From Hallerella sp. (GTDB lineage Bacteria > Bacillota_I > Bacilli_A > RFN20 > CAG-826): DNA of 64,000 nucleotides. How positions within the stretch are numbered: position 1 is the first letter of the stretch; each line of letters starts with the position of its first letter. The position numbers were made by a program, and so were the translations under genes. Positions 12,788-56,124 of the stretch are shown here, one piece after another. The stretch spans positions 117,426 through 181,425 of the forward strand of contig CAVJFO010000015.1 of the NCBI GenBank assembly GCA_963648925.1. Reading direction: 5' to 3'. The notes beneath the pieces were generated by a model. It was not told the DNA's origin, ran no database searches, and saw only the letters and a list, made by a program, of their open reading frames with translations.

Positions 12788-12805
12788 GGAAAGGAGAACA
12801 CTAAC

Positions 12806-13201: not shown

Positions 13202-13233
13202 TTTAGAATTACAGAAAGAAGAGAATAACAATT

Positions 13234-13791
13234 ATGTCACGTATTGGATTTAAACCCATCGCTCTTCCAGAAGGCGTTACCTACGAAATCGTTGATAGCG
13301 TCATGACCGTTAAAGGCCCTAAAGGCGAAGTAAGCGTCAGAATTCCTTCTGACGTCAGCGTCGAGGAAGCCGACGGCCACCTCCATGTTAAGCCACTTGC
13401 CGCTGAAACAAAGCAAGGCAGCGCTAACCATGGAACAACAGCAGCTTTATTAAACGCTGCTGTTGTCGGTGTCCATGAAGGTTGGAAGAAAGAATTAGAA
13501 ATCAACGGTACAGGTTACCGTGCCTCTGTCAAAAATGGCGAAGTTACTATGTTCTTAGGCTACAGCCATCAAATCACCGTTGCCCCAGTTGGCAAATATA
13601 CAAAAATTAGCTGCCCAGATGAAACACACATCATCGTTGAAGGCTGCAATAAACAAGAAGTTGGCCAAACAGCCGCTCTCATCTATGACAAGCATAGACC
13701 AGACGTTTATGGCCAAAAAGGTGTTCACTACAAAGGACAACACCTCATCAAGAAAGTTGGTAAGCGTGCTGCTGCCGGCGGTAAGAAATAA
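13234..13791 (+). CDS. rplF: 50S ribosomal protein L6
   Basis: L6 family with a two-domain repeat. Confidence 0.95.
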   Translation: MSRIGFKPIALPEGVTYEIVDSVMTVKGPKGEVSVRIPSDVSVEEADGHLHVKPLAAETKQGSANHGTTAALLNAAVVGVHEGWKKELEINGTGYRASVKNGEVTMFLGYSHQITVAPVGKYTKISCPDETHIIVEGCNKQEVGQTAALIYDKHRPDVYGQKGVHYKGQHLIKKVGKRAAAGGKK

Positions 13792-13806
13792 GGAGGTAAA
13801 TAGAAT

Positions 13807-14163
13807 ATGATCAAAAAAGAAGCAAGATCAGTCGTTCGTGAACGCAGACACATTCGCGTTCGTGAAAAGATCTCCGGTACTGCTGAGTGCCCACGTTTAG
13901 TTGTTTTCCGTTCCAATAAGCACATCGAAGCTCAAATCATCGATGATGTCAAAGGAACTACCCTTGTCAGCTCTGGCTCTGTCCAACTCAAATTAGCATC
14001 TGGCTCCAATTGCGAAGCCGCTGCAACAGTTGGTGCAGATATCGCCAAAAAAGCTATTGCTGCCGGTATCACCAAAGTCGTCTTCGATCGTGGTGGTTAT
14101 CAATATCATGGCCGCGTCCAAGCTCTTGCCGACGCCGCTAGAGAAGGAGGCTTAGTCTTCTAA
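13807..14163 (+). CDS. rplR: 50S ribosomal protein L18
   Basis: L18 family ([16 protein letters not shown]). Confidence 0.95.
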
Positions 14164-36214: not shown

Positions 36215-39200
36215 ATGTTTGATGTAAACAATTTAGCCGCAATGCAAGTCGGACTTGCTTCCCCAGATACAATCCGTGGCTGGTCACATGGCGAAGTCAT
36301 TAACTCCGAAACGATCAACTACCGTTCCCATAAACCGGAATTTGGTGGTTTATTCTGCGAACAAATCTTTGGTCCTGTGAAGGATTATGAATGTTCTTGC
36401 GGAAAATACAAAAAGATGAGATACCAAGGCACGACATGTGAAAAATGTCACGTCGAGGTTATTTCCAAAGAGTGGAGAAGAGAGAGATTCGGTCATATCG
36501 AACTCGTCTCTCCTTGCACCCACATCTGGTATTTGAAAGGTATTCCTTCCCGTATTGGATTACTTCTTGATATGTCTCCAAAAGAGCTTGAAGAAGTTGT
36601 CTATTTCGCAGGCCACCTTTGCCTTAATCCAGGTACTTTAGGTTTTGATGAAAATGGTGTCGCAAAACCATTCGACAAATTAAAGAAAAAGCAATTCTTC
36701 AACGATTCCCCAGCTAGCAGAGAAGCTTTCGTTGCAGCTATCCAAGCAATCCAACAAAGCGGAGAAATCATCGAAGATAGCGCTGATGATTACAAAGCAA
36801 AAGAAATCATTCAACGTTTACAAAACGCCAATGAAACATTTGACTTTGCATCAACCTCAGCCTTCGTTGCTAAATACACCGATGCTGAGTTTGGCGAAGG
36901 CGCAGCAGCCGTCAAACGCTTGCTTAGCGAAGTTAACTTAGACGAAGAATTCAATATTCTTTCCGAAAAAGTTAAAACCGAAAAAGGCCAAATCCGTTTG
37001 AAAGATGCTAAGAGACTCGAAGTTGTCGAGGCTTTCCGCAATTCTAATCAAAAACCTGAATGGATGGTTCTTGATGTAATCCCTGTGATTCCACCAGAGC
37101 TCCGTCCAATGCTTCAACTCGATGGCGGACGTTTCACCGATTCTGATATCAACGATTTATATCGTCGTGTCATCATCCGTAACACACGTTTGAAGAAATT
37201 AATTGAAAACAATGCTCCTAGCGTCATTCTTTGCAATGAAAAACGTATGCTTCAGGAAGCCGTTGACGCTTTAATCGACAACGGACGCCGTGGCAAACCA
37301 ACAGTTGGCAAAAATGGCCGTGAACTCAAATCCCTTTCTAGCGGATTAAGAGGTAAGCAAGGTCGCTTTAGACAAAACTTACTCGGTAAGCGTGTCGACT
37401 TCTCTGGTCGTTCGGTTATCGCAGTCGGTCCAAATCTTAAGATGTATCAATGCGGTCTTCCACGCGAGATGGCCGTCCAACTCTTACGTCCATTCATTTC
37501 TGCCATTCTCTTAAAGAGAGGCATTGTTACTGCTCATAGACAAGCTGATAAGCTTATCGATGCATATGATCCAAAGGTTTATGACATCGTTGAAGAGATC
37601 ATCGGACAACACCCAGTTCTCCTTAACCGTGCTCCAACCCTTCACCGTCTTTCCATCCAAGCTTTCCAACCTGTCTTAGTTGACGGACACGCTATCCGTT
37701 TACACCCACTCGTTTGCCCTGGCTTCAACGCCGACTTCGACGGTGACCAGATGGCTGTTCACGTTCCTCTTGGAAAAGCGGCACAATCTGAGGCACTTAA
37801 CCTCATGCTCGCATCCAATAACATCCTTGGTCCAAAAGATGGCAAAACAGTCGTCGTTCCTGGACAGGATATGGTCTTAGGCAACTACTATCTCACAGCC
37901 GAAGAATCAATCGTTGATATGCTCAACCGCGCGAAAGATCTTCGCAAGGTCACAGTCTATGACGAAGCTGAGAAAATCGCTAACGAGAAGGCTGCCCTCC
38001 AACAAGAAACATTTGCTAAAGAAGAAGGAAAGATCTTCGGCTCTGTCACATCAGTTCTCGAAGCATACGAAACTGGATCAGTTCAAATCCACACTCGTAT
38101 TGTCATTCCTGCTAAAGCAATCCATAAGACATTCGGCGATGATTTAAATGAATTTGCCCTTCCAAAGGATGTTGAGAATAAATATCTCATCACAACAGTT
38201 GGTAAGGTCATCTTTAATGAAATCTTCCCTGATGACTTTGTCTATATCAACTGCAACAAGCCAGCATCAATCAACCGTGAAATAATCGAATCTTGGTTCG
38301 TTTCTCCTGCTGATGTTCAAAAAGAACACGATGCTCTTGAAGCAAAGATTGGCTCTCTCTCTGATGAAGACGCAATCAAATTCATCGTTGAGAACTACTT
38401 CATGAAACAGGATAAGAAGACTGGAAAACTTGTCTACATTGATGAACACTACAGAGATTCTGACTATCCTGAACTCGCTAAGATTGCCTTAGCCTTCCAT
38501 AAAGATGGCAACAATCTTTCCGAACATATCTGCTTAACAAACCTCTTTACTGGTATTGGCAAGAAAGATATCGGCGCCCTTATCGATATGGTCTTCCATA
38601 AATACGATATGAAAGACGAAGATAGAGTCGAACCAAAACCATGTAAGACATCCGCGATCTTAGATAAGATCAAAGACCAAGGCTTCAAATATTCAACAAT
38701 CTCCTCAGTTACAATCGCCCTTTCTGATATTAAAGATATTAAGAATAAAGACGGATACGTTGCTGAAGGTCAAAAGAAGGTTGAAGCAATCAATAACGCA
38801 TATCAACTCGGTTACATCGAAAACGAAGAACGTTACAAGCAAGTTTGTAAGGTTTGGACAAATGTCACTGACCAAGTCGCAAAAGAAGTCGCGGCTTACA
38901 TGAAGAAAGATAACCGTAACCCATTGATCATCATGGCCGACTCTGGCGCTCGTGGATCCTTGGATAACTTCAAACAGTTAATCGGTATGAAGGGCTTAGT
39001 CTCCAACCCTAAGAACGAGGCTATTGAACTTCCTATTATTTCTTCCTATCGTTCTGGCGTTAAGGTCAACGAATTCTTCATCAACACCCACGGTGCTCGT
39101 AAGGGTGGAGCTGATACAGCCTTAAAGACTGCTGACTCTGGTTACCTTACAAGACGTCTTGTTGACGTTTCTCAAGACGTTATCGTTCGTGAAGATGATT

Positions 39201-40447
39201 GCCATTGCGATCACGGATATAAAGTCCGCAAGATCGAAAAGGCTTCATCAACTGGCGGTGAGGCAAAAGTTATTGCTTCCCTCTCTTCTCGTATTAACGG
39301 CCGTTATGCCATGCACGATATCATTGACCCATCAACTGGCGAAATCATCGTTTGTGGCAACACCTTGATCCATGAAGATGAAGCTAAAGCCATTGAAAAG
39401 GCTGGCATTGAAGAGGTCGAAATCCGTTCCATCTTCACTTGCCAAACAAAAGAAGGCGTTTGCCGTCATTGTTATGGTCTTAACATGGCAACCGGACATC
39501 TTGTCCAACTTGGCGAAGCTGTCGGTATTATGGCTGCTCAATCAATTGGTGAACCTGGTACACAGCTCACCATGCGTGTCTTCCACACTGGTGGTATGGC
39601 TGGTGAAGATATCACTTCCGGTCTTCCACGTGTTCAAGAACTTGTTGAAGCCCGTAATCCAAAAGGACAAGCTATCATCGCTAAATTCGCTGGTAAAGTC
39701 TCTGACATTACCAACAACCCAGATGGTTCACAAGCTATCACTGTCGTTTCTTTAGCTGGCCCAACAGTCGAAAACCCTGTTACCGAAGCTGCAGTTTACG
39801 AAATCCCACGTAATACGAAACTTGCCGATGGCATCGTTAAAGGTGCTACAGTCGAAGCAGGCGGACTCATTACAAAAGGATCTAAGAAACTTCAAGATCT
39901 CCTTGAATACACAGACGTTGAAACAGTTGAAACGTATATGTTAAAGGAAATCAAATCGGTTTACGCCTCCCAAGGTATCGAACTTTCCGATAAACACCTT
40001 GAGATTGTCATCCGTCAAATGTTACGTAAGATGTTCATCAATGATTCTGGAGACACAAAACTCTTACCAGGAACAAGAGTCGACATCGATCGTTACACGG
40101 AAGCCAACCAAGAAGCACTCGTCAATGGCTTACACCCAGCAGTTGGTCGCCCATTGATCCTTGGTATCACCAAAGCCGCATTAGAGACCGAATCCTTCCT
40201 CTCGGCCGCATCCTTCCAAGAAACCAACCGCGTTCTTACCGACGCTGCCATTAAGGCAAAACGCGATAACCTCCACGGTTTGAAAGAGAATGTCATCACT
40301 GGCAAACTCATTCCTACTGGTTCTGGATTATTCACCGAAGAAGAAGAGAAAGCCCACCTTAGCAACTTCGACGTCTTATCTAAGATGAAAGAAGTTAAGG
40401 CTCAATACGTTGAGGCTCACGACCGTAAAGACAGCATTGCTGACTAA
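36215..40447 (+). CDS. rpoC: DNA-directed RNA polymerase subunit beta' (1410 aa, with lineage-specific insertions)
   Basis: Zn finger CX2C...CX2C, the NADFDGDQM catalytic loop, and trigger-loop and bridge-helix regions. Confidence 0.98.
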   Translation: MFDVNNLAAMQVGLASPDTIRGWSHGEVINSETINYRSHKPEFGGLFCEQIFGPVKDYECSCGKYKKMRYQGTTCEKCHVEVISKEWRRERFGHIELVSPCTHIWYLKGIPSRIGLLLDMSPKELEEVVYFAGHLCLNPGTLGFDENGVAKPFDKLKKKQFFNDSPASREAFVAAIQAIQQSGEIIEDSADDYKAKEIIQRLQNANETFDFASTSAFVAKYTDAEFGEGAAAVKRLLSEVNLDEEFNILSEKVKTEKGQIRLKDAKRLEVVEAFRNSNQKPEWMVLDVIPVIPPELRPMLQLDGGRFTDSDINDLYRRVIIRNTRLKKLIENNAPSVILCNEKRMLQEAVDALIDNGRRGKPTVGKNGRELKSLSSGLRGKQGRFRQNLLGKRVDFSGRSVIAVGPNLKMYQCGLPREMAVQLLRPFISAILLKRGIVTAHRQADKLIDAYDPKVYDIVEEIIGQHPVLLNRAPTLHRLSIQAFQPVLVDGHAIRLHPLVCPGFNADFDGDQMAVHVPLGKAAQSEALNLMLASNNILGPKDGKTVVVPGQDMVLGNYYLTAEESIVDMLNRAKDLRKVTVYDEAEKIANEKAALQQETFAKEEGKIFGSVTSVLEAYETGSVQIHTRIVIPAKAIHKTFGDDLNEFALPKDVENKYLITTVGKVIFNEIFPDDFVYINCNKPASINREIIESWFVSPADVQKEHDALEAKIGSLSDEDAIKFIVENYFMKQDKKTGKLVYIDEHYRDSDYPELAKIALAFHKDGNNLSEHICLTNLFTGIGKKDIGALIDMVFHKYDMKDEDRVEPKPCKTSAILDKIKDQGFKYSTISSVTIALSDIKDIKNKDGYVAEGQKKVEAINNAYQLGYIENEERYKQVCKVWTNVTDQVAKEVAAYMKKDNRNPLIIMADSGARGSLDNFKQLIGMKGLVSNPKNEAIELPIISSYRSGVKVNEFFINTHGARKGGADTALKTADSGYLTRRLVDVSQDVIVREDDCHCDHGYKVRKIEKASSTGGEAKVIASLSSRINGRYAMHDIIDPSTGEIIVCGNTLIHEDEAKAIEKAGIEEVEIRSIFTCQTKEGVCRHCYGLNMATGHLVQLGEAVGIMAAQSIGEPGTQLTMRVFHTGGMAGEDITSGLPRVQELVEARNPKGQAIIAKFAGKVSDITNNPDGSQAITVVSLAGPTVENPVTEAAVYEIPRNTKLADGIVKGATVEAGGLITKGSKKLQDLLEYTDVETVETYMLKEIKSVYASQGIELSDKHLEIVIRQMLRKMFINDSGDTKLLPGTRVDIDRYTEANQEALVNGLHPAVGRPLILGITKAALETESFLSAASFQETNRVLTDAAIKAKRDNLHGLKENVITGKLIPTGSGLFTEEEEKAHLSNFDVLSKMKEVKAQYVEAHDRKDSIAD

Positions 40448-40464
40448 GGTCAAATAATAAAATT

Positions 40465-40499
40465 AAGCGTAGTTATCGTTAAGGTAGCTACGCTTTTTG
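40465..40499 (+). terminator. Rho-independent terminator after rpoC
   Basis: 8-bp stem AAGCGTAG/CTACGCTT followed by TTTTTG. Confidence 0.65.
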
Positions 40500-40514
40500 T
40501 TATGCTCAGAAATT

Positions 40515-40540
40515 TAAAAAAGGCCCTAAGGCCTTGAATG
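40515..40540 (-). terminator. Terminator of the minus-strand GT2 gene
   Basis: AGGCC-CTAA-GGCCT hairpin followed, on the minus strand, by a U6 tract. Confidence 0.6.
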
Positions 40541-40549
40541 TAAATAAAA

Positions 40550-42244
40550 TTATTTCTTGCTTTGTATGAATTCTATCCCGCCCATCACAAAGAATGGATT
40601 TAGATTCAATATGCCAAGAATGATCGTTATAACTCCAACCGTTTTCTTTTTATAGTTAGCAATTAATATGCCAACCATTATAAGGCTGAATAATGTCCAT
40701 AAGAAGACGGCAATAGAAGGAATCAATAAAGGATCGGCCCAAAGAAGATATTCCTTGAATGGGTTGTCTTTTCTTGCGTATACGGCTGCAAGTAAGAAGA
40801 CAAGCGAGATAGCCATTAAGACTATTTGATATATCGCGCCAATCTTATAGTTCTTGCTGAAATCACTTTTCTTTTTCTTTTCTTCTTCCTTTGAAAGCTC
40901 ACTGCCATCCTTAACAAAATGGTGATCAATATGTTTCCATTCAGGATTTTTGAAAGCAGAAACGGCGGAGAAGATCGGATCCATCAATGTATATAAAGGG
41001 AACAAGAAGGAGTAGAAAAATATTTTATGCCATGGCAACAAAATATGTTTCCACTCTTTGATGATAACTAGGATGTTATGCAAGAAAGACCCAAGATACA
41101 ATCCGCCAATAACACCTATCCAATAATTAAGGACGCTCATCCAAGTAAAGCTTTCATCTCCAACGATAAAGAATAAGGCTAAGACGGTTATTTGATATAT
41201 AGCAGTAATCCAAAAAGTAAGGAAAGAATAAGGGAAAGTTTGGAAGAAAATGTCATACTTAGACCATGATGGCTTTTTGAAGAAAGACTTAATCATCACC
41301 CAAGCATAACGGTTAAAGGCGATAAGTCCCCCTCTTGCCCATCTAATTCTTTGTCGCCAAAGAAGTTTGAATGTCGTTGGTTGCTCTTCATAGAATACAG
41401 CCTCTTCGGTGAACCCCGTCTTATAGTTATTAGATGTTAAATCAAGCAATGTTTCGATATCTTCAGTAAGTGAGACCCATTTCCATCCATCTTTTAATAA
41501 GTAAGATCTTAATGTTGTGGAAGGACCGTACATTTCTTGATTGCAGTTTAAGACTTGTCTAGGTCTAAGACCATCTAAAGAATGGGCGAAAGCTTGAATG
41601 CCACACATCGAAGAGATCCAATTTTCCGAAAGATTCTTCGTGTTTCTATAGGCGATACATTCATCAACCCCGCTGTATTGAAGATAATTATTGATTTTGC
41701 TTATGTAATCTGGGGCTGGAACATTATCGGCATCTAATGTCGTAAAAGCGTAGTATTGATTTATATCAACATCTTTTTTAATTTGTGAGACCAAATACCT
41801 TAAGCCATAACCTTTCGAACGCTCGTTAGGGTTATTGTGATAATAAACAAAGGCGCCACGTTCTTTAGCGATTTCTCCGGTCTTATCAGTGCAATTATCG
41901 GCGCAAACATATATATCGATTAATTCTTGAGGGTAATCCATGCTGCGGATTGAGTCGATAAGATTCCCAATAACTAATTCCTCATTCCATGCCGTAATTA
42001 TGAAAGCGTATTTCTTATCCTTTGGCATTTCAGGGTATTTCTTCGGCTTGCTGAATAAACCAATAACGATATAAACGCTTTTATAGGCAACAAGAACTCC
42101 TAGAAACAAAAATAAAGACGAAAATATAACTTGAACATAACCTTGAGCGGGAATCGGTTGATTATTTTCTATGGCGTTCATGATTAAATCGATGCCTAAA
42201 AAAGAATAGAACCATTTAGCTATTGCTTCCCAAAATTGTTCCAT
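40550..42244 (-). CDS. Processive family-2 glycosyltransferase, membrane-embedded polysaccharide synthase (D, DxD and QxxRW motifs)
   Basis: N-terminal 2 TM, GT-A catalytic domain (TLDADN, QRIRWARG) and a C-terminal TM bundle, resembling BcsA/PgaC/HasA-type synthases. GAGGT RBS 7 nt before ATG 42244. Confidence 0.8.
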   Translation of the reverse strand: MEQFWEAIAKWFYSFLGIDLIMNAIENNQPIPAQGYVQVIFSSLFLFLGVLVAYKSVYIVIGLFSKPKKYPEMPKDKKYAFIITAWNEELVIGNLIDSIRSMDYPQELIDIYVCADNCTDKTGEIAKERGAFVYYHNNPNERSKGYGLRYLVSQIKKDVDINQYYAFTTLDADNVPAPDYISKINNYLQYSGVDECIAYRNTKNLSENWISSMCGIQAFAHSLDGLRPRQVLNCNQEMYGPSTTLRSYLLKDGWKWVSLTEDIETLLDLTSNNYKTGFTEEAVFYEEQPTTFKLLWRQRIRWARGGLIAFNRYAWVMIKSFFKKPSWSKYDIFFQTFPYSFLTFWITAIYQITVLALFFIVGDESFTWMSVLNYWIGVIGGLYLGSFLHNILVIIKEWKHILLPWHKIFFYSFLFPLYTLMDPIFSAVSAFKNPEWKHIDHHFVKDGSELSKEEEKKKKSDFSKNYKIGAIYQIVLMAISLVFLLAAVYARKDNPFKEYLLWADPLLIPSIAVFLWTLFSLIMVGILIANYKKKTVGVITIILGILNLNPFFVMGGIEFIQSKK

Positions 42245-42461
42245 AAACAAAACCTCACAGCAATTGAGTTGATTATAACAAAACATATATTTTTAATAAA
42301 GATTTAAAGAATAATAAAACTTATTAATATATAAGAAGATACCTATTAGAAAGAAAAGGCGCACGAAATTGTTAAAATTGAAAAATATTTGCAAAATTTA
42401 AAATCTTTTTCGAATAATTCGTTAGTGTTTTTAAAGCACACTTAACCCAGTGTATCAAAAT

Positions 42462-45680: not shown

Positions 45681-46898
45681 ATGGCAAAAGAGAAATTCAA
45701 CCGTGACCGCACCCACGTTAACGTTGGTACAATCGGCCACATCGACCATGGTAAGACAACCTTATCAGCCGCAATCATGCACGTTCTTAGCTTAGTTGGT
45801 AAAGAAACCAACGGTGTCGAAGGAAACGCAAAAGACGTCGGATACGCTGGTATTGACTCTACACCAGAAGAAAGAGCTCGTGGTATCACCATCAACTCTG
45901 CTCACGAAGAATACGAAACAAAAACCCGTCACTATGCCCACGTTGACTGCCCAGGGCACGCTGACTACATCAAGAACATGATCACCGGTGCAGCTCAAAT
46001 GGATGCTGCTATCCTTGTCGTTGCTGCAACTGATGGCGTCATGCCACAAACCCGTGAACACGTCCTTCTTGCTCGTCAAGTCGGTGTTCCAGCAATCATC
46101 GTCTTCCTTAACAAGTGCGATATGGTCGACGATCCAGAATTAGTCGACTTAGTCGAAATGGACGTCCGTGACCTTCTCACTTCCTATGGATTCCCAGGAG
46201 ACACTCTCCCAGTTATCCGTGGTTCCGCTTTGAAAGCCGGACAAGTCGCTTCCAGCAAAGATGCTGATGCCGCTTGCGTCCTCGAATTACTCAAAGCTCT
46301 TGACACATACATCCCAGATCCAGTCCGTTCTGATGATAAGCCATTCTTAATGCCTATCGAAGACGTTATGACAATCTCTGGCCGTGGCACAGTCGTTACT
46401 GGCCGTGTCGAACGTGGTGTTGCCAAGATGAACGACGAAGCTGAAATCGTCGGTATCCGTCCAACAATCAAGACAGTCATCACTGGTCTTGAAATGTTCC
46501 GTAAGACCCTTGACTTTGTTGAGTCTGGCGATAACGCCGGTGTTCTTCTCCGTGGTGTTACCCGTGACCAAGTCGAACGTGGCCAAGTCCTTGCTAAGCC
46601 AGGATCCATCGTTCCACACGACAAATTCACTGCTACAGTCTACGTCCTTACAAAAGAAGAAGGCGGCCGTCACACTGGCTTCTTAAAAGGCTATCGTCCA
46701 CAATTCTTCTTCCGTACAACCGATATCACCGGTACAATCGACCTCCCAGCCGATGTCGAAATGGTTATGCCTGGTGATCACGTTACCTTCACAGTTAGCT
46801 TAATCCACCCAGTTGCTCTTGAAGCTGGTACTAAGTTCTCCATCCGTGAAGGCGGCAAAACCGTTGGTTCCGGACAAGTCGTTGACATCCTTCACTAA
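45681..46898 (+). CDS. tuf: Elongation factor Tu
   Basis: Motifs [17 protein letters not shown] and NKCD. Full-length EF-Tu. Confidence 0.98.
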
Positions 46899-46928: not shown

Positions 46929-46957
46929 AGCCCTTGCGTTTGCAGGGGCTTTTTTTG
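46929..46957 (+). terminator. Rho-independent terminator after tuf
   Basis: 9-bp stem AGCCCTTGC/GCAGGGGCT with loop GTTT, followed by a T7 run. Confidence 0.75.
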
Positions 46958-47043
46958 TTTCCTGCAAATTAAATATTGCTAACACGGAAATTTCTAACTA
47001 AAACAAGCATTTATCAAACTAAAAAATAAATAAAAATAGTAAT

Positions 47044-47078
47044 TGACAATATAGTTAGTTAAGACTAATATATAACTA
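47044..47078 (+). promoter_or_regulatory. Promoter TTGACA-17-TAATAT
   Basis: Consensus -35. A GGAGGGG RBS sits 5 nt before ATG 47107. Confidence 0.55.
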
Positions 47079-47106
47079 CCAAGAAGATTAACTTGGAGGG
47101 GATATT

Positions 47107-48486
47107 ATGATCGATATATTGTTGTTGCCGTTCATGTGCTTTTCTATTTCTAATCCGCGTATTGCGAGTGTAGAAGTAGATAAAACGCCTATTCGTTTTA
47201 ATGCCATTGTTTCAACAACTGGGGACAAATTATATATGGATGGCGATTATAAAAAGACGTACGGTGAGAAGAAGATGAAACTACCATCTTATAAAAGCGA
47301 ATACACAGAAAAAGTTGCTGGAAACAAAACTTATCTAAATGCTGAGAAGATGGAATTACCTACTGGAAATTTAAGATTTTACAATCGCTCATTGGACATT
47401 AACGGATCGTTTTCTAGAGCTAATGCTGCTGATGTGTATTATGTGAATCTTGATGATCGCATGATCACTGAATTTCGGTTTGTTACGGAAGACGCAAATG
47501 TTACCGCATACGTTTCAGATGAGAACAGGACAAAACTATTTGATGTTTTTCAAAAGGACGAATCTGAAGGGTTGCCTAGTGGTTTACTAACAAAGGGCGC
47601 TTATTATTTAACAGTTAAGACTAATGGCCAAAAGGACACTAATTACAAAATAAACATGTTTGCCTCATATGCCGATTCAAAAGAAAAAGTTACGATAGAT
47701 GAGGAATTCATGAATAAATATACCGCTCTTGTTTGGGAATCCGATTATGTTCCTGGCGCGGTTGATCCAATTGACGGAACGATTATAAGGCGAGACTTCA
47801 AACCAGGAAGAAGAAGTCCTTGGACTCATACAGGAAGATTCGTTTCGGGAGAATTAAACAAACCATATCTTTATAGATCTGTTTATATTTGGACAAATGA
47901 GGCATTTGAAGATTTGCACAACGACATAGAAGTTTATAAAGCTAAACTATTGGAAGTATCGAGCAAAGCTAATGATATAGTTGCTAAATGGAGTACAACC
48001 TCGAGCGTGACTGGGGCAGCTGGCTTCTTCGTAACATTTTTACCTGTTGTAGGCGGAGTTTTAGGGACGGCCCTTGGCGGAGTAAGCTTAGCGACTTCAA
48101 TAATCGCCGCCTGTTTAGGAAGTTCAAGCGAAATTAACGCCGATTTAGCAATAAGACAGTGTGAAAGATTTCTTGGAGCCTTGGATGCGGCAAGCACGGG
48201 AACGATAATTTCGTTTAAAGAATGCGTTACTGTAAAATCTTATAAAAATGATAGTAAATACACTAAACGCCATTACCAAAAAATAAGATTTCAATCGTAT
48301 TTAGATTTCTCGAGTGGCGATACGTATGATATCACTGAGAAAAAAGCTGGCAAAGGCGACTATCCATCCTACGACGCCCATCTTCGTCATGGCGCAAAGA
48401 ATCAAATAATTAGCGATTGCCAAGGGACTTTCACGGCATACGAGAGCTACAAAGACATCAAACCCTTGACGTCTTTAGAGGATTGA
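47107..48486 (+). CDS. Hypothetical protein: PPC-like beta-sandwich domain plus a helix / Gly-Ala-rich hydrophobic hairpin / helix module (candidate membrane-active toxin)
   Basis: Residues ~100-190 fit the pre-peptidase C-terminal (PPC) pattern (YYVNLDD...GAYYLTVKTNGQKDTNYKINMF). Residues ~300-340 read VTGAAGFFVTFLPVVGGVLGTALGGVSLATSIIAACLG and are flanked by predicted helices. No classical signal peptide. Confidence 0.5.
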   Translation: MIDILLLPFMCFSISNPRIASVEVDKTPIRFNAIVSTTGDKLYMDGDYKKTYGEKKMKLPSYKSEYTEKVAGNKTYLNAEKMELPTGNLRFYNRSLDINGSFSRANAADVYYVNLDDRMITEFRFVTEDANVTAYVSDENRTKLFDVFQKDESEGLPSGLLTKGAYYLTVKTNGQKDTNYKINMFASYADSKEKVTIDEEFMNKYTALVWESDYVPGAVDPIDGTIIRRDFKPGRRSPWTHTGRFVSGELNKPYLYRSVYIWTNEAFEDLHNDIEVYKAKLLEVSSKANDIVAKWSTTSSVTGAAGFFVTFLPVVGGVLGTALGGVSLATSIIAACLGSSSEINADLAIRQCERFLGALDAASTGTIISFKECVTVKSYKNDSKYTKRHYQKIRFQSYLDFSSGDTYDITEKKAGKGDYPSYDAHLRHGAKNQIISDCQGTFTAYESYKDIKPLTSLED

Positions 48487-48490
48487 TAAT

Positions 48491-49129
48491 ATGAATAAAA
48501 ACAAAAACGTACTTACATTTCTTTGCCTCTTTCCATTATTTTTAACCTCTTGCAACAAGCAAAACACGATTCAGGAGGAGATGGAGACTCTAGAGAACAA
48601 TGGCTGCTTTTTATTGAACAAAACTTATGAACGTATCTTTAAAGGCTTTTATGGCACAGAATGCAAAGGAGAGTTCTTTGACATATATTCGAAAGAACTT
48701 AAAAATACTGGCGAATTTGAATATTTAAAAACCATTTCAAAAACGGATGTATATACAGCGGGCATATTCAACGGTCAGCAAACTAGATTTTATTTTCGCG
48801 ATGGAATAAATGTCGGCTTTAGCACGAGGGACCCCCAATTTGGACAATCCCTTTTCGGTTGCACAATAGGAAGCCCAACCCGCGATTATCTTAATGATGG
48901 TTGGAATAATTCTCTAATCGCGAAATTTAATGAACGTGGTTGGACTTGTACATATGAAAGAGATGAGGAAGAACGTTCAGAACTTTCCGTGTTTGACCTA
49001 GATGAACCCATTAGCCTAGTCCATAGATATATGAAATATAAAGACAAATTGCATGTCAATTTCGGATTCGAAAATAAGTATTCGTTAAATTGGAACATGA
49101 TGTCTTTGGAAATCTACCTAGATGAATGA
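48491..49129 (+). CDS. Hypothetical lipoprotein, paralogue A (immunity-like)
   Basis: Lipobox LTSC. About 55% identical to the next gene. Lies 4 nt after the upstream CDS. Confidence 0.65.
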   Translation: MNKNKNVLTFLCLFPLFLTSCNKQNTIQEEMETLENNGCFLLNKTYERIFKGFYGTECKGEFFDIYSKELKNTGEFEYLKTISKTDVYTAGIFNGQQTRFYFRDGINVGFSTRDPQFGQSLFGCTIGSPTRDYLNDGWNNSLIAKFNERGWTCTYERDEEERSELSVFDLDEPISLVHRYMKYKDKLHVNFGFENKYSLNWNMMSLEIYLDE

Positions 49130-49162
49130 ACTCAACATCATCATAATTGGAGGACTGAAAAT

Positions 49163-49789
49163 ATGAATAAAAACAAAAGTGTGCTTGCGTTCCTTTGCGC
49201 TATTCCGTTGCTAGCAACTTCATGCAACAAGCAAAACACAATCCAAGAGGAGATGACTGTTTTAGAGAACAATGGTTGCTTTTTATTGAACAAAACTTTT
49301 CAAGAGATCTATGACAAGATAGGCTTTCACGATTTTTATGATATTTATTCTGGCGAACCAAAATTCACAGGTAAATTTCAATATTCTAAGACTATTGGTA
49401 AAACTGACGTCTATACGGCTGGAACATTCAATGGTCAGGAAACGAAACTCTATTTCCGCGATGGCATAAATGTCGGATTTAGCACGAGGGACCCGCAATT
49501 TGGCTTATCGCTTTTTGGCAGAACAATAGGAAGTCCAACGCATGGTTATATTAACAATTGGTGGGATAATTCAGTAGTTGCTAAATTTCACGACCGTGGG
49601 TGGGTATATGATTATGATAGGTTAGAGGAAGAATATTCGGAACTTTCCGTGTTTGATATAAATCCACCTGAATATACCGTTCCTAGATATATGTATTATC
49701 AAGAAAAACTCCATGTTAATTACGGCATGAAACCTTTAGAATCGCTATGTTGGAATATGGTGTCTTTAGAAGTGTATCTTGATGAATAA
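49163..49789 (+). CDS. Hypothetical lipoprotein, paralogue B (tandem duplicate)
   Basis: Lipobox ATSC. Long stretches of near-identical DNA with paralogue A (for example the FRDGINVGFSTRDPQFG region). Confidence 0.65.
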   Translation: MNKNKSVLAFLCAIPLLATSCNKQNTIQEEMTVLENNGCFLLNKTFQEIYDKIGFHDFYDIYSGEPKFTGKFQYSKTIGKTDVYTAGTFNGQETKLYFRDGINVGFSTRDPQFGLSLFGRTIGSPTHGYINNWWDNSVVAKFHDRGWVYDYDRLEEEYSELSVFDINPPEYTVPRYMYYQEKLHVNYGMKPLESLCWNMVSLEVYLDE

Positions 49790-49896
49790 AAAGTATCTTT
49801 GAAATAGAGGGCCGCTTAATCTTTAGAACGTAAGATTAGAAGAAAACCATTAAATATTTCTTTAATAATTTTTCTCTTTCACATATATTTAATGCC

Positions 49897-51186
49897 ATGG
49901 AAGAAAAAGATTTATTACAAATAGCGCCAGTCTCTAAAAGAGCTCTCTCTTTTATCATTGATTTCGTTCTGGCATTTTTACTTGGCATCATTGTCAATAG
50001 CACCCTCACAAGCACATATTTATTTAACGCTTTAGGAGGAGGAACCTTACAACAGGATTATTATTCTTTTGCCATTGATTCTGGACTTGTCAACTCAACG
50101 AAGAATGACGATGGAACAATTAAAACGATTTTCCTTTATTCTTATGCGCCTGACGGCAAGGAAAATACGACATTACAATATGTTGCAACCCCTAATGGTG
50201 AACTCGGTTATGAGGCGTATCTTGATATCGTTTGGGATTATTACACGAATTTCTATCCAAATGATTCAAGAATGATTCAACCTGAAGAATATGTTTATAG
50301 CAAAGAAGCCTTAGATTCTTATAAAACCTACGTTTACAAAGATATATTCCTTTTACCAAATCCTGGTAGCGTGGAAGGAAAAAGCGATGCTACATTGTAT
50401 TCAAGTGACGAGAATCAAATCTATTTCCAATATGATGTTAATGAAGACGGAACGCCTAATTTAAGCGTTAAGCCAACTCTTAGAGAGAATATCAAAAAAG
50501 ACCTTGAAGATGATATAAAAAGAAGCGATACATTGAAAAACCTTCGCGATTATTTCCTTGGAATAACGGAGTCATCATCCTCTCTTTCAATCGCCGGAAC
50601 TGGCATTTATTATCAAGCTGCCTTACATATGGAAGGGCAATCTGGCTCTAACCAAACATATTTCTCTAACATTTACACAAAAGTTAGCTGGATTAGCTGG
50701 GAATGCTCTCTTGTCGCATTATTACCATTCTATTTAATCATTTTCTATCTCGTTCCTGTCTTTGATAAAAAAGGCAGAACACTTGGCAAATGGGCTCTTG
50801 GAGTTGTCGTTATCAATAAAGATGGCACATATATGAAACTCTATCAAAGATTGCTTAGGCCTTTATATATGGTTGTCCTTTGCTCATTGACCTTAATTCC
50901 AAATAACGCCATATCTTTCTTAGCCTTTGGCGCGGTCGCTTTACTTGATTTTGGCTTTGCCTCATTTGGAAAAACGAGCCAATCCTTACATGACAAGCTA
51001 TTTAGAACCCTTGTTGTAACAAGAAAGAAATCCACAATCTTCAAAACGGTTGAAGAAAAAGAAGAATACCTCAAAAAAGAAAACGAAAGAATCGAAGAAG
51101 AAAGATCTATCAAAGTCCCTTCAACAGGCAAAAACCTTGATTTAGGTTCTTTGATTGAAGAAGAAGCAAAAGAAAATAATAATTAA
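49897..51186 (+). CDS. RDD-family membrane protein with a ~210-aa ectodomain insertion (paralogue 1)
   Basis: TM1 motif RALSFIIDFV, GRTLGKWALGV and SLHDKLFRTLVV match RDD (PF06271) motifs. Charged C-terminal tail. Confidence 0.65.
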   Translation: MEEKDLLQIAPVSKRALSFIIDFVLAFLLGIIVNSTLTSTYLFNALGGGTLQQDYYSFAIDSGLVNSTKNDDGTIKTIFLYSYAPDGKENTTLQYVATPNGELGYEAYLDIVWDYYTNFYPNDSRMIQPEEYVYSKEALDSYKTYVYKDIFLLPNPGSVEGKSDATLYSSDENQIYFQYDVNEDGTPNLSVKPTLRENIKKDLEDDIKRSDTLKNLRDYFLGITESSSSLSIAGTGIYYQAALHMEGQSGSNQTYFSNIYTKVSWISWECSLVALLPFYLIIFYLVPVFDKKGRTLGKWALGVVVINKDGTYMKLYQRLLRPLYMVVLCSLTLIPNNAISFLAFGAVALLDFGFASFGKTSQSLHDKLFRTLVVTRKKSTIFKTVEEKEEYLKKENERIEEERSIKVPSTGKNLDLGSLIEEEAKENNN

Positions 51187-51416
51187 TCTAACTTTGTTTT
51201 TAGGATATAACAATCATTCTTGCGATCATAGGCAATGATATAAGGAGAATTAGTTTTCGAAAGAAAATCCCTTAAATCATTGATATATCGTTTAAATCTC
51301 AAATCATTTATTAAGAGTTCATCTAAAACATCTCGTTTGTAGATGACTCTTTTTTCTTCTAACTTGCTATAGAGATATAAGAGGCAGAATGTTTTTGAAA
51401 ATCCATTTTTTCTCAT
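51183..51416 (-). CDS. Small hypothetical protein (77 aa), doubtful
   Basis: ORF only. No RBS and no family recognised. It lies in a 490-nt gap convergent with the upstream RDD gene. Confidence 0.2.
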   Translation of the reverse strand: MRKNGFSKTFCLLYLYSKLEEKRVIYKRDVLDELLINDLRFKRYINDLRDFLSKTNSPYIIAYDRKNDCYILKTKLD

Positions 51417-51675
51417 ATTTATTTGATTTTATATTTTTCTTCAACAAATAAAAACTGAATTCGTTTTGTTACTGGCGAATTGCTTAATTTTTACAATCGA
51501 GAGTTTTTTGATATTTCATAATCAGGAAAATTGACTATAATAATATTCGGAAGGACACCTTCCATAACATAGCAACGACACCCCCGTTCCTTTAGGAATG
51601 AAAAATTAAAAACGTTTTGTTTCTTTTTGTTTACCGGCGGTGTTTTTCTTTTTGTTGAATAGAAAGGTAATTTTA

Positions 51676-53811
51676 ATGAAAACAAAAAAATTGTGTTTGC
51701 TAGCCTTAGGCAGCATCTTCATGTTGGCAGGTTGCGGTGAAACCAATTCTAGCGAAAGTAACGCTAAAGAAGAAAGTTCATCCGTAAGTCAAAGCCAAGA
51801 TGAAATCTCATCAAGCGAATCTTCCTCCGAGTCTTCTAACGAAAGCTCATCCTCATCTTCATCCTACGATTTCGATTATGAATTAACGACTGTTGCTGAA
51901 GCTATTGAAATTGCTAACCAACACCAAACTGCTACGACAGAACGTTATTACATTTTTGGAACCATCACCGAGATTAGCGATGCAACCTATGGTTCAATGA
52001 CAATCGAAGATGAAACTGGTTCGATTTACGCTTACGGAACATATTCCGCAGACGGAGTTGATCGTTATAGTGTTTTAGAGAACAAACCACAAGTTGGAGA
52101 TCAAGTTGTCTTATATTCAACGCTTGTAATGTATAATGGCACTCCAGAAATCAAATCTGGCTGGATTGTTTGGCAAAGCACTAAAGAAAAAGAATTCAAC
52201 GAAGACGACTATGCGGCAAAAACTATTGCTGAAGCTCGTGAAATGAGCGCTGGATCCTTGGTTAAAGTTAGTGGAGTTGTCGCTAGAATAACCTATGCAA
52301 ACGGCATGATTCCATCTGGATTCTACGTTATCGATAACACATCCTCCATTTACATTCATTCAACCCTTGCTGCTAAAGTAGAAGAAGGAAATAAGATCAC
52401 TGTTTGTGGATCTGTTGATTTCTGGATTCTTGAAAATGAAACAACTAGCGCTGGTAAAGTCGGTTACAAAGGCTCATGCCAATTAAGCGATATAACAATT
52501 ACCGCAAACGACAATTCAACAGAGAACACCTTTGATAAATCCTGGATAGAGGAAAGTACCGTTAAAAATATTGTGGATACCCCTGCAACGGAGAATATCA
52601 CCAACAAGATATTCAAGGTTAATTCCTATGTGAAGAAAGTAAGCGCCCCAGGCTTTGTTAATTACTATTTAGATGATATTGATGGAGTTACTGGCTCCTA
52701 CGTCTATACTCAATGCAATGGCAGCGACTTCTCCTGGCTTGATGAATTTGACGGAAAAATTTGCACAGTTTATTTAACCGCTATCAATGCTAAATGCACT
52801 GGCGCTGGCGCCATTTGGCGTTTCATGCCAATCGAGGTAATCGATGAAGAATATCAATTCGATACAAAAGACGTTAACGAATACGTTTGGACTTATCATC
52901 TTGATGGACTTTTCCGTGAATCATATACCGGTGACCCAAATCTTGAAGTCCCAACAAGCGTTTCCTCTGAACTTTTAGGATTTGAAAACGCCACAATTTC
53001 TTATTCTTCTTCAAATACCGATGTTGCATATTTTGAAACAACCGAAGAAAACACCATTTTCCACACAAAAGATAATGGCAAGGCCACAATCACCATTGAC
53101 ATTGATTATGGTACAAACGAAACTCTTACTAAAACCTTTGATGTTACAGTCGCAAAAACTTCATATGATGATGCATTAACCGTAAAAGAAGCGATTGATG
53201 CAGCAAACCAAGAAGAAGTAATCGTTAAAGGAATTGCCGGTCCTTCACTTGTTAACCAAGTCGGATTCTACTTAATTGATGAGACTGGCGTTATTGCCGT
53301 TAAGACTACCTCAGAAGCAATGGCAGAAATCTCTTTAGGAAACGAAGTCGTCTTTAAAGGCACTAAAACTATTGGCTACGGAACAGTCGAAGGTTCTGAA
53401 ATTGCCGGAGAATCCTGTATTTTAGATTCAACTCTCGTTACCAACTTATATGGCAAACACGACTATTCAAGAGATACCTTCATCACAGATAAAACTCTTG
53501 CTGACGTTTACGCTTTAGATTATAAAGTTGATCACTCAACGGAAGTCTATACTGTTAAAGGCAAGATCAGCAAGACCGAAACTTCCTACTACACAACTAT
53601 TGCCATAGTTGATGGAGATACGAAACTTTCGCTTTATTGCTCTAGCGCAAATCAATATAACTGGTTAGCAAATGCCTTTGACGCGGATACTGAAGTTACC
53701 CTTGATATTGCTCCATGTAACTGGAACAAGAAAAAATACTGGGCTGGTTGCGTACTCTCTGCAACTGATGGAACCACTAGAGTTGATAACACCTTGAATT
53801 ACAGCAAATAA
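51676..53811 (+). CDS. Surface lipoprotein with a Ser-rich linker, at least three OB-fold-like repeats and a Big_2-like Ig domain (putative nucleic-acid binding)
   Basis: Lipobox LAGC. Repeats of the pattern 'TV.EA....g..v.v.G.i..i.....f.i.D.TG.I.vy'. Big_2-like segment ATISYSSSNTDVAYFE...ATITIDIDYG. Confidence 0.6.
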   Translation: MKTKKLCLLALGSIFMLAGCGETNSSESNAKEESSSVSQSQDEISSSESSSESSNESSSSSSSYDFDYELTTVAEAIEIANQHQTATTERYYIFGTITEISDATYGSMTIEDETGSIYAYGTYSADGVDRYSVLENKPQVGDQVVLYSTLVMYNGTPEIKSGWIVWQSTKEKEFNEDDYAAKTIAEAREMSAGSLVKVSGVVARITYANGMIPSGFYVIDNTSSIYIHSTLAAKVEEGNKITVCGSVDFWILENETTSAGKVGYKGSCQLSDITITANDNSTENTFDKSWIEESTVKNIVDTPATENITNKIFKVNSYVKKVSAPGFVNYYLDDIDGVTGSYVYTQCNGSDFSWLDEFDGKICTVYLTAINAKCTGAGAIWRFMPIEVIDEEYQFDTKDVNEYVWTYHLDGLFRESYTGDPNLEVPTSVSSELLGFENATISYSSSNTDVAYFETTEENTIFHTKDNGKATITIDIDYGTNETLTKTFDVTVAKTSYDDALTVKEAIDAANQEEVIVKGIAGPSLVNQVGFYLIDETGVIAVKTTSEAMAEISLGNEVVFKGTKTIGYGTVEGSEIAGESCILDSTLVTNLYGKHDYSRDTFITDKTLADVYALDYKVDHSTEVYTVKGKISKTETSYYTTIAIVDGDTKLSLYCSSANQYNWLANAFDADTEVTLDIAPCNWNKKKYWAGCVLSATDGTTRVDNTLNYSK

Positions 53812-53891: not shown

Positions 53892-55079
53892 ATGCAAAAA
53901 GATTACGTTGAAAAAGAAGAAATCAAAACCGATAAAAACGGCGTACTAATCGTTAGGGGTTCTTCATTAAGAAGAGCTTTAGCGGAGTTGGCGGATATCT
54001 TAACTGCTTTTATTTTAGCCATAACGATTTATGGTGTGGGCTTTCAACGCTTGTTTGGCTATGACCACTATACAAATGAGATGAGCAAGGTTTCTTCTTC
54101 TATGACCTCGTTCATGATTGAACATAACTTATATAAGAAAAGCGATGACGGAAACATTTTGCTAAAAAGCGATTTGTCCTCTTATTGGTCATATTACTAC
54201 CTTGCTAACTCTGATTCTTCATATAAAAAAAGAAAGATTTATGAGCCAATAAAAGACTATTACACGGTCACAAGGATTTCATCTTTTGCTAGGATGAGCC
54301 AATACGAATACAACACGGAAATCCTCAAATTGCCAAAAACGCTTGATGGCTCTTATGAAGATAGCGTTTTCATATACGATTCAACAAGCGCGGATCCTTT
54401 AAATAACGAGCCAATATTCAAAGAAGAAATAGCAACAAACCTTAACACGTATTATTTAGGCAATACTGATGCTTATGAACCAAAAAACGCCTATCAAACA
54501 GTTTCTACATTCTTCTCAAATATCTACGACGTTGCTTTTTCAGAAGCGGTAAAAGATGAGACATATATGAATTTAGTCTTAGAATTTGCCTCCAAGATGT
54601 GGTCACGCTCTTACCTTCAATCCGCGGCAATAATTTCTTCCTATTTGCTTGGGGCAATTATCACTTTTTTACTTCTCCCTTTAATTCAATTGAGTGGCTT
54701 GACCCTAGGAAAAAGAGTAGCAAAGCTTCAAGTTAACGATCAATATGGTGATAAACCGCGTTGGTATTCTTTCTTGATTAGGGGTTTAGTGCAAATAATA
54801 TGTTACTGTTTCATGATTCCCCTTATCGGAGTTATGTCTTACGGATTCGGGGCTTTCGAGATGCCTTTGCTAGAGATAGGTTCGTTTAACTTAAACTTAT
54901 CTTTATTTGCAATTCTGGGCTTGTTATTAACCATTCTTTCCTTAGTTATGATGCTAGTAACCCCAGGAAAACAATCATTACACGATTTAGCTTCCTTGAC
55001 TTATGTTAATACCTCGGATATAAAAGTTATCCGTGATGAACAAAGCAAATTAGAGAAAAACGATCATGGAACAAAATAA
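53892..55079 (+). CDS. RDD-family membrane protein with a large ectodomain (paralogue 2)
   Basis: LTLGKRVAKL and SLHDLASLTYV RDD motifs. Ectodomain shares FFSNIYD and DDGNILLKS motifs with paralogue 1. Confidence 0.6.
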   Translation: MQKDYVEKEEIKTDKNGVLIVRGSSLRRALAELADILTAFILAITIYGVGFQRLFGYDHYTNEMSKVSSSMTSFMIEHNLYKKSDDGNILLKSDLSSYWSYYYLANSDSSYKKRKIYEPIKDYYTVTRISSFARMSQYEYNTEILKLPKTLDGSYEDSVFIYDSTSADPLNNEPIFKEEIATNLNTYYLGNTDAYEPKNAYQTVSTFFSNIYDVAFSEAVKDETYMNLVLEFASKMWSRSYLQSAAIISSYLLGAIITFLLLPLIQLSGLTLGKRVAKLQVNDQYGDKPRWYSFLIRGLVQIICYCFMIPLIGVMSYGFGAFEMPLLEIGSFNLNLSLFAILGLLLTILSLVMMLVTPGKQSLHDLASLTYVNTSDIKVIRDEQSKLEKNDHGTK

Positions 55080-56124
55080 AACGGCTAATACATTAGAATA
55101 TTTCAAAGCGCCATTTGGCAAAAGAATGGTTTCGATAATAATTGAAATTTTTCTTCTTTCATTTGGCTTTTTAGCTTTTCTTTTTTGTTCGCGTCTTATC
55201 GTTGAAAGAATGCCGTTATATACTGATTCATTCGACACATATATCAATATTTCAAAGGATTCTGGATTATACGTTTGCGATAAAACAACCGATAATAACC
55301 TTGTGACTCTTACCGAATATTATGGAAGCAAATCATACGAAACGCAAAATAACGTTATCGAAAAAGCGCTCACTAAGTTTTACACCTTAGAAGAATTCTT
55401 TTCCCAAGATGAAAATAGCGATACGTATGGCCCAAATATTTATTACAAACAAAAAATAGGCGAGACACGTATTGGAAACGATGAAGGAGTGGATTATTTT
55501 TTATTGGACGCAACAGGTACCCCAAAGAAAAACCCTTCATTTACTGAAGAGAAGATGAACGCCTTTTACCTTACGGCATATGATCGCGCTGTTTCCTATA
55601 TTCAAAACAATGAATCTTACCTTCAAGCAAGAAACGTCTTAACAATTTATATCAACCTCGTTTTGATACCTCTTTCGATTGTTCTTTCTTTTTTGATATT
55701 CGAAGTTCTCATCCCTTTAACAATCGGACGAAGAGGCAAACAAACCTTAGGGATGAAATCAATGAAACTTTCTCTTCTTTCTGTTGATGCGCTCTCTTGC
55801 AAGGCAAATAGATTTATCGCTAGGCAAGCGATTCAACTCTTTTTGATTATCTTGTTATCTCTTGTCTCTTTTGGCATTCCTTTAATCGTTTCTTTTTCAA
55901 TGATGATATTTAGAAAAGATGGCCAATGCCTCCATGATTATTTATCTGGAACCTATATGGTTGATTCATCCGAACAATCTGTTTATTTAACTTACGAAGA
56001 GATGAATAACCTCAAAAAGAAAGCGGAAGATAGCTACAATAAAGGCATCCAATCTTCAAGAAAAAATCAAAAAGACATTCCTTTGGGAGATGACTCAATT
56101 TGGCGCAATTTACGCGATAAATGA
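55066..56124 (+). CDS. RDD-family membrane protein with a large ectodomain (paralogue 3)
   Basis: GRRGKQTLGMK and CLHDYLSGTYMV RDD motifs. Overlaps paralogue 2 by 14 nt. Confidence 0.6.
   Translation: MEQNKTANTLEYFKAPFGKRMVSIIIEIFLLSFGFLAFLFCSRLIVERMPLYTDSFDTYINISKDSGLYVCDKTTDNNLVTLTEYYGSKSYETQNNVIEKALTKFYTLEEFFSQDENSDTYGPNIYYKQKIGETRIGNDEGVDYFLLDATGTPKKNPSFTEEKMNAFYLTAYDRAVSYIQNNESYLQARNVLTIYINLVLIPLSIVLSFLIFEVLIPLTIGRRGKQTLGMKSMKLSLLSVDALSCKANRFIARQAIQLFLIILLSLVSFGIPLIVSFSMMIFRKDGQCLHDYLSGTYMVDSSEQSVYLTYEEMNNLKKKAEDSYNKGIQSSRKNQKDIPLGDDSIWRNLRDK

Follow-up and report, generated by a model that had tools for sequence, protein, structure and literature searches.

We have analysed a cassette of three genes lying directly downstream of tuf in a stretch of 64,000 nucleotides (nt) from Hallerella sp. 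(contig CAVJFO010000015.1 of assembly GCA_963648925.1, positions 117,426 to 181,425 of the forward strand; hereafter the window), and we lean, with a little more than even confidence, towards regarding it as a toxin/immunity module of a new family, in which an exported protein with a PPC-type targeting domain and a hydrophobic hairpin as effector would be neutralised by lipoproteins. The first gene (47107..48486, plus strand, as are all cassette features given below) encodes BIG, as we call it here, a protein of 459 aa that belongs to no named family and is a putative exported toxin. The gene of LIPO-A, a 212-aa lipoprotein and candidate immunity protein, starts 4 nt past the BIG stop codon (48491..49129) and is followed by that of LIPO-B, a 208-aa paralogous lipoprotein and putative second immunity protein (49163..49789). 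The domain anatomy of BIG, its strict linkage to lipoprotein genes, the presence/absence polymorphism of the cassette and its one-sided decay are documented here. In the proposed mechanism BIG would be transcribed from its own promoter and exported by means of a conserved 15-residue N-terminus; its PPC-type beta-sandwich may bind a component of the target-cell surface, while a Gly/Ala/Ser-rich hairpin, which emerges between the pair of long helices in a new kind of alpha/beta module, would insert into the target membrane and damage it. The two translationally linked lipoproteins, standing on the outer face of the producer membrane, would neutralise BIG, probably by binding, and the second copy may broaden protection. 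The original prediction for this DNA, made from its letters alone, had placed the three open reading frames (ORFs), a TTGACA-17-TAATAT promoter and a strong ribosome-binding site where we also find them, and the spacing of 4 nt that it reported between the large ORF and the lipoprotein gene agrees with the coordinates (48486 to 48491).

The association of BIG with lipoprotein genes extends well beyond the window. Twenty-eight loci were fetched and all their ORFs were searched with hidden Markov models (HMMs) of the BIG and LIPO families; in all of the approximately ten distinct cassette types a BIG gene is followed within 2–11 nt by a LIPO-family gene. These types are the window group (the window, L008, L023, L024 and L028), the L001 group, two in L003, and those of L006, L011/L012, L013, L014, L015 and L017. 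From one to four LIPO genes accompany each BIG, with two in the window group and in L017 and three or four in L011 and L012, though L028, itself in the window group, has BIG and one lipoprotein. Every intact BIG among the loci examined has a lipoprotein gene beside it, and the co-occurrence in other genomes that the original prediction had left to be looked up was found at every one of them. Since the flanking genes vary by cassette type (ClpB, 3-hydroxyacyl-CoA dehydrogenase, tRNA genes and others), the BIG–LIPO pair travels as a unit that is not tied to tuf, and the recurrence of this conserved unit in many genomes shows that the observation is genuine and far beyond what chance would give. 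One metagenome-assembled genome (MAG) holds three separate cassettes and L003 holds two in tandem, and such divergent copies within a genome would suit a toxin/immunity module. Several paralogues per genome would also suit a surface adhesin or receptor-binding complex, an explanation that we rate as unlikely, in which BIG would be held on its own cell by the hairpin, the PPC domain would attach to a polymer of the host or of its diet, the lipoprotein would be a structural partner or anchor, and the copies would provide antigenic or ligand variation. The paired adhesin operons of mycoplasmas are a parallel for such an arrangement. However, lipoprotein genes outnumber BIG genes in the arrays, which would be unexpected for obligate partners.

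The tuf–RDD junction differs in content among closely related genomes. An EF-Tu look-up (same 90% cluster) led to four genomes with mutually identical EF-Tu (L025, L026, L027 and L028), whose junctions hold BIG with LIPO, a lipoprotein-only remnant or nothing at all (variable site: L025 8218-8337; L026 8219-9345; L028 6360-8680; window 46955-49851). At L028 the junction contains BIG and its single lipoprotein gene. In L026 and L027 about 1.29 kb of BIG is gone, and what remains are the promoter, a decayed start and the last ~90 nt of BIG (…SDCQGTFTAYEDYKDIKPLALLEE); the retained stretch, which includes an intact lipoprotein gene, is 98% identical to L028, and the TTGACA-17-TAATAT promoter is kept 5' of the orphan lipoprotein gene in L026. 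At L025 the tuf terminator is followed by the RDD gene with no cassette between them. Homology of this empty site to the window stops at ~46954 and restarts at ~49852 by blastn, delimiting an entire accessory cassette of ~2.9 kb (46955..49851). The boundary is marked by a 13-nt imperfect direct repeat, with a left copy ATTAAATATTGCT at 46968..46980 and a right copy ATTAAATATTTCT at 49849..49861; the copies are 12/13 identical at a spacing of 2881 nt, and a single related copy is present in the L025 empty site. The repeat is short and AT-rich and could be of chance origin.

Decay of BIG beside preserved lipoprotein genes was found repeatedly. The BIG gene of L011 carries a GAA-to-TAA nonsense mutation at an invariant Glu while its three lipoprotein genes are intact, and in L011 and L012 short BIG stubs stand immediately 5' of additional lipoprotein genes, consisting either of the C-terminal ~30 codons or of the N-terminal 21 codons joined in frame to the C-terminal end. 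A code with UGA as Trp was considered as the cause of the in-gene stop in L011 and ruled out, the codon being TAA in place of GAA; genes of the lineage are read through with code 11, and UGA is therefore a stop codon here. A search of 1.84 billion representative proteins added at least six distinct internally deleted BIG forms in which both ends are kept (P0049, P0052, P0056, P0057, P0113 and P0123). BIG is thus lost while an expressible LIPO gene is kept, and never the reverse, a pattern that is toxin/immunity-like and awkward for obligate subunits of a surface complex. The many independent deletions, and a nonsense allele, next to promoter-bearing intact lipoprotein genes speak in particular against the adhesin explanation. 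As in toxin/immunity systems, a partner gene lies directly 3' of BIG in all cassette types examined, and orphan immunity genes occur together with toxin remnants. Some of the deleted forms are mini-ORFs of 44-46 codons (L012 5262-5426; P0113 and P0123), composed of the first ~20 and the last ~22 codons of BIG in frame and situated directly 5' of an intact lipoprotein gene; their layout suggests selection for continued translation into the lipoprotein gene once the toxin has been lost.

The domain anatomy of BIG was examined with two structural models: an AlphaFold2 model of the full-length protein built from 18 family members (predicted local distance difference test, pLDDT, 71; predicted template modelling score 0.69) and a separate model of the C-terminal module (residues 192-459), for which a broader alignment was used (pLDDT 67). 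Residues ~91-190 (47377..47676) form a PPC/collagen-binding-type beta-sandwich, the fold of the collagen-binding domains of collagenases, which would serve as the target-binding domain; here the PPC-like sandwich of the original prediction proved correct by fold comparison. The closest known structures are the collagen-binding/PPC domains of the clostridial collagenases ColG and ColH (PDB 5iku, 1nqd, 3jqw) and the receptor-binding domain of Clostridium perfringens enterotoxin (8u5f), but sequence identity is 17-20% and BIG has neither a collagenase nor an aerolysin-type module. Positions 80-175 of the BIG family profile match hundreds of large PPC-repeat proteins, such as P0048 with nine PPC repeats; the Pfam model itself (PF04151) gives no match to the window BIG at E ≤ 1, and its score for the relative P0060 is 25.0 bits, where the gathering threshold is 25.9. 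A PPC/collagen-binding fold is a binding module, as the adhesin explanation would have it, and the hydrophobic hairpin of BIG could in that case serve as a re-entrant anchor.

The C-terminal module (residues 192-459; 47680..48483), which would be the effector part, appears, provisionally and on the strength of these models, to have no known fold. Modelled alone, it is a confident antiparallel sheet with two long helices, and BIG is therefore not a bundle of the ClyA or colicin type. The original prediction had likened the protein to alpha pore-forming toxins of the ClyA/Hbl/YaxAB type and to colicin pore domains; a hydrophobic hairpin between two helices, with beta strands in the full-length model, is superficially similar to a beta-tongue, but neither an elongated bundle of four or five long helices carrying a head, nor the ten-helix globular bundle of the colicins, nor a Pfam family at E ≤ 1, nor a PDB sequence match beyond the PPC region was found, so that this assignment is largely refuted and retains almost no probability. 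All that BIG shares with ClyA, Hbl, Nhe, YaxAB and the colicins is the abstract idea of a hydrophobic hairpin shielded in the soluble form, in the absence of any helical bundle or sequence or fold match. The immunity proteins of pore-forming colicins, moreover, are polytopic membrane proteins and not lipoproteins.

The candidate membrane-inserting element is a Gly/Ala/Ser-rich hydrophobic hairpin at residues 289-342 (47971..48132), delimited by hydropathy and motif scanning. Residues ~300-338 alone in BIG exceed 1.5 in Kyte-Doolittle hydropathy averaged over 19 residues, and they lie between helices predicted at 264-285 and 345-361 in the full-length model; the Gly/Ala-rich stretch flanked by helices that had been read from the sequence is indeed present. 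The segment GGVLGTALG (316-324) of the window BIG is a perfect GxxxGxxxG motif, which has been linked to membrane-permeabilising toxins such as TelE and CdzC/D (PMC10434224, PMC5380434). Among the family members scanned the strict motif occurs in the window BIG, P0002 and P0004; P0006 and P0044 have GxxxGxxxS, most close members have small-xxx-small-xxx-small, and distant relatives often have none of these.

An exhaustive profile search revealed distant BIG relatives of 436-795 aa, which share the PPC domain, the motifs 'VWESxYxP' (W210/P216) and 'YxW' (W262), the helix-hairpin-helix and a C-terminal 'YG' strand. Throughout this superfamily W210, P216 and W262 never vary, at least 90% of the sequences have G440, and the hairpin retains its hydrophobic, small-residue character and not its sequence. 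None of these four residues is a usual catalytic one. Taken together, the superfamily constants and the character of the hairpin suggest that the module serves a structural purpose or enters the membrane and is not an enzyme, and the lack of conserved catalytic residues would be in keeping with an adhesin as well. A distinctly improbable alternative is that of an enzymatic envelope-targeting toxin with lipoprotein immunity, whose C-terminal module would hydrolyse lipids or polymers of the cell surface. It is favoured by the many polar positions that do not vary among close family members (E211, S212, D213, D223, R257, S258, D273, S369, K371, D437, C438 and Q439) and by the precedent of a lipase toxin with lipoprotein immunity (PMC10730906), but the polar residues are lost in the wider superfamily, where W210, P216, W262 and mostly G440 remain, and neither HMM searches nor fold comparison linked the module to a hydrolase.

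The N-terminal peptide of BIG, MIDILLLPFMCFSIS (residues 1-15; 47107..47151), is probably an atypical export signal. It is the most conserved region of the protein, with 75% mean pairwise identity compared to 36-64% elsewhere, and in the lipoprotein-linked family it follows the consensus M-[ILVF]-[DSNE]-x-[ILF]-[LM]-[LIV]-P-F-[MLV]-C-x-S, with the Cys always at residue 11 and Ser13 invariant. The peptide is hydrophobic, has an acidic residue and no basic one (no Lys/Arg), and contains no canonical lipobox; a cut behind residue 15 would fit the -3/-1 rule of signal peptidase I (S-x-A/S/T). Among the other ORFs of all the analysed sequence the motif was not encountered, being found solely in the BIG family. 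Conservation as an RNA or DNA element was considered and rejected: codons vary synonymously and the 5' untranslated region is not conserved beyond the promoter and the ribosome-binding site, and hence selection acts on the peptide. Many distant relatives, P0060, P0082, P0137 and P0144 among them, start with textbook Sec signal peptides, which argues that the superfamily acts outside the cytoplasm, where a lipoprotein could reach it. The claim that BIG has no Sec signal stands as far as a classical signal is concerned, yet it passed over the hydrophobic and most conserved first 15 residues and the Sec signals that distant relatives have in their place.

These data also bear on the idea of an intracellular membrane effector, for instance one of abortive infection, in which cytoplasmic BIG would collapse the membrane of its own cell upon a trigger and the lipoprotein would have a separate role. 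The absence of a canonical signal peptide and an N-terminus with an acidic residue and no Lys/Arg would agree with it, as would the position of some cassettes beside ATPase or helicase genes typical of variable islands. Nevertheless, the PPC domains and the Sec signals of relatives point to the extracellular side, the strictly linked partner is an extracellular lipoprotein, and neither a match in PADLOC nor a link to phages or plasmids was found; we consider this explanation very improbable.

LIPO-A (MNKNKNVLTFLCLFPLFLTSC; MNKNK...LTSC) and LIPO-B (MNKNKSVLAFLCAIPLLATSC; ...ATSC) begin with a basic n-region, a hydrophobic core and a lipobox, LTSC and ATSC respectively. With the lipobox pattern [LVI][ASTVI][GAS]C and the signals read from the letters, both qualify as bacterial lipoproteins by sequence, with lipidation predicted, and the Ser-Cys of the lipobox is invariant in the LIPO-family alignment. 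The two proteins are 66% identical, their genes are 71.4% identical and the longest exact run is 21 nt. The loci L008, L023 and L024 have the same tuf-BIG-LIPO-LIPO-RDD order, with a BIG 76-78% identical to that of the window and fusA and tuf above 99%. In the comparison with L008, LIPO-A and LIPO-B are each 75% identical to their own orthologue as against 61-68% across copies; since each copy has its own orthologue in the sister species, the duplication predates the split of the two species. The tandem pair had been described as recently duplicated with long near-identical DNA, a description that these values contradict, the duplication being old.

Among known systems, the nearest functional precedent for lipoprotein immunity arrays would be, by analogy, TslA/TilA of Staphylococcus aureus, where tandem lipoprotein arrays (TilA/DUF576) act as extracellular immunity against TslA (PMC10730906). 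The likeness resides in the linkage of an extracellular-acting toxin gene to lipoprotein immunity genes with variable copy number, tandem arrays and orphans. However, TslA, a phospholipase, carries a helical domain of LXG-like type and leaves by type VII secretion with helper proteins (PMC10730906), whereas in BIG the signatures of LXG and lipase are missing, helper genes are absent, the N-terminal signal is another one and the fold is unrelated, and DUF576 was not detected in LIPO-A or LIPO-B with Pfam or NCBIfam. TelE/TipE (PMC10434224), CdzC/CdzD (PMC5380434) and Tse4 resemble the window BIG, though not most of the BIG family members scanned, in a Gly-rich hydrophobic GxxxGxxxG segment that may oligomerise in the target membrane; a cognate immunity gene adjoining the toxin and the existence of several variants per species are further likenesses. 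Unlike BIG, these glycine-zipper toxins are of small size or largely made of helices, and immunity to them comes from polytopic membrane proteins or DUF5085 proteins instead of lipoproteins. With contact-dependent inhibition (CDI), Rhs and LXG systems the cassette has in common the order of toxin and immunity gene, additional immunity genes behind toxin 3' stubs and presence/absence between close strains, but BIG is conserved at both termini and in its core and has no known trafficking domain, no long delivery domain and no swappable C-terminal toxin.

The BIG and LIPO families and the C-terminal fold are not described in any database searched. Pfam, NCBIfam, PHROG and PADLOC gave no family match for BIG, LIPO-A or LIPO-B, as the first reading of the sequence had anticipated, and relatives that were scanned too gave nothing significant; for PADLOC, which covers known anti-phage defence, this holds for the three window proteins and two relatives. 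No Pfam or NCBIfam match to known delivery domains (LXG, Rhs/YD, PT-TG, MafB, etc.) was obtained for BIG, which has the family-specific 15-residue N-terminus instead. In PDB sequence profile searches BIG produced only weak PPC matches, and the lipoprotein and the C-terminal module produced none; by hhalign the lipoprotein and BIG families are unrelated. A search of 5.8 billion proteins yielded 19 BIG homologues, all of 440-466 aa and 35-78% identical, and 24 lipoprotein homologues, all of them devoid of a name or domain annotation. A protein search with the C-terminal superfamily profile added no further informative members, and a metagenome scan with the Sec-type relatives as query gave no match. 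Viral contig scans and tblastn against phage and plasmid records were likewise blank, and an origin from mobile elements is therefore without support. The loci derive from human-gut and other gut metagenome bins, and within this sampling the cassette appears confined to Mollicutes-like gut bacteria that have not been cultured. The titles of several 'cleanbin' MAGs (Sodaliphilus, Bacteroides uniformis, E. coli, Faecalibacterium prausnitzii, Lachnospiraceae) clash with their content, and such labels seem unreliable: the mislabelled-looking contigs (L008-L011, L013-L015 and L025-L028) carry genes of the Mollicutes-like lineage, some with identical EF-Tu.

As to the layout of the site, tuf (45681-46898) is the upstream neighbour, and its transcript is closed by a terminator-like hairpin (46929..46950, plus strand) with a 9-bp stem, 6 GC pairs and a T-run. 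This hairpin is the last feature in common with cassette-free genomes, and the homology of the L025 empty site spans it. The sigma-70-type promoter TTGACA-17-TAATAT (47043..47071) was located by sequence scan; a 4-kb scan gave 10 promoter-like sites against 13 expected, and the lone match is thus not above chance, but an equivalent arrangement of -35, -10 and ribosome-binding site stands upstream of every homologous cassette aligned. The ribosome-binding site GGAGGGG (47095..47101) lies 5 nt 5' of the ATG, with its GGAGG conserved in the alignment of homologous cassettes, and the 33-nt gap between LIPO-A and LIPO-B carries a separate GGAGGA for LIPO-B. An Rfam scan of the whole window found no family at gathering score and a tRNA scan found no tRNA; Rfam was blank despite the ribosomal-protein, rpoBC, secY and str-operon genes in the window, which are common places for ribosomal leader RNAs. 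The EF-Tu of the window has 405 aa, ~10 residues above the usual length of ~394-397 aa, with the additional residues apparently around 36-60. Three paralogous RDD-family membrane proteins are encoded 3' of the cassette (49897-51186, 53892-55079 and 55066-56124; Pfam E of 3e-15, 3e-12 and 5e-9), flanking a 723-aa lipoprotein (51640-53811) with weak OB-fold and atrophied-Ig matches and a Ser-rich linker. A second, small variable site follows rpoC, where L025-L027 carry a gene for a 415-436-aa SLFN_AlbA_2/HATPase_c_4 protein (e.g. L025 471-1718); in the window this gene is absent, rpoC (36215-40447) being followed, after the gap 40448-40549, by a glycosyltransferase gene (40550-42286, minus strand). 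In L026 the stretch 10981-13918, which separates the first RDD gene from the large ORF further downstream, holds genes for a 224-aa protein and for a 757-aa protein with an AHH nuclease match and a faint RHS-repeat match; at this place in the window there is nothing but an ORF of 77 aa on the minus strand (51183-51416). A recognised polymorphic toxin is therefore encoded in this neighbourhood as well.

Several findings weigh against a toxin/immunity module. The database searches brought no evidence of toxicity by homology. Lipoprotein genes do not accompany the distant relatives of the Sec type; the partners of these relatives are a small DUF6487 zinc-ribbon protein in two cases, once upstream and once overlapping downstream, and a 115-aa three-helix membrane protein in one (L016 81-314; L022 7368-7664; L019 3760-4107). 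In BIG itself the N-terminus conforms to neither the Sec nor the lipoprotein type of canonical signal, and export of the protein is putative. Both structural models are of moderate confidence (pLDDT 67-71), hence the provisional standing of the fold, and they disagree on the hairpin, which is drawn as strands when the whole protein is modelled but as helices of low confidence when the C-terminal module is modelled alone. The hairpin is only moderately hydrophobic (Kyte-Doolittle 1.3-2.1), with Lys/Arg in P0007, P0009 and P0018, and of the family members scanned only 3 have the strict glycine zipper. Divergence of the cassette proteins is similar to that of neighbouring surface proteins (74-86%), without exceptional acceleration, a rate that the adhesin explanation would accommodate. 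Furthermore, L026 and L027 may reflect a single deletion event. The general idea of a toxin with lipoprotein immunity that had been put forward for this DNA is upheld and gains from the linkage and the one-sided loss of BIG; its ClyA/colicin form and the recent duplication fell, and the toxicity of BIG is putative.

A more far-reaching proposal, which we entertain tentatively and which may well prove wrong, is that BIG founds a new class of exported membrane-inserting toxins, combining a new alpha/beta fold, a short signal that is processed or acylated in a non-canonical manner and a new family of lipoprotein immunity proteins in a competition system of reduced-genome gut Mollicutes-like bacteria. 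If the cassette encoded a surface adhesin pair instead, its interest would be modest. Should the toxin/immunity module be confirmed, it would provide a new toxin fold together with a new family of immunity lipoproteins, and the ultra-conserved 15-residue N-terminal signal could expose an unrecognised route of export or lipidation. Almost nothing is known about competition among these uncultured reduced-genome bacteria of the gut, and the three natural allele states of the locus, with toxin and immunity, with immunity only, or empty, make the hypothesis directly testable and may offer a marker for strain-level competition in metagenomes.

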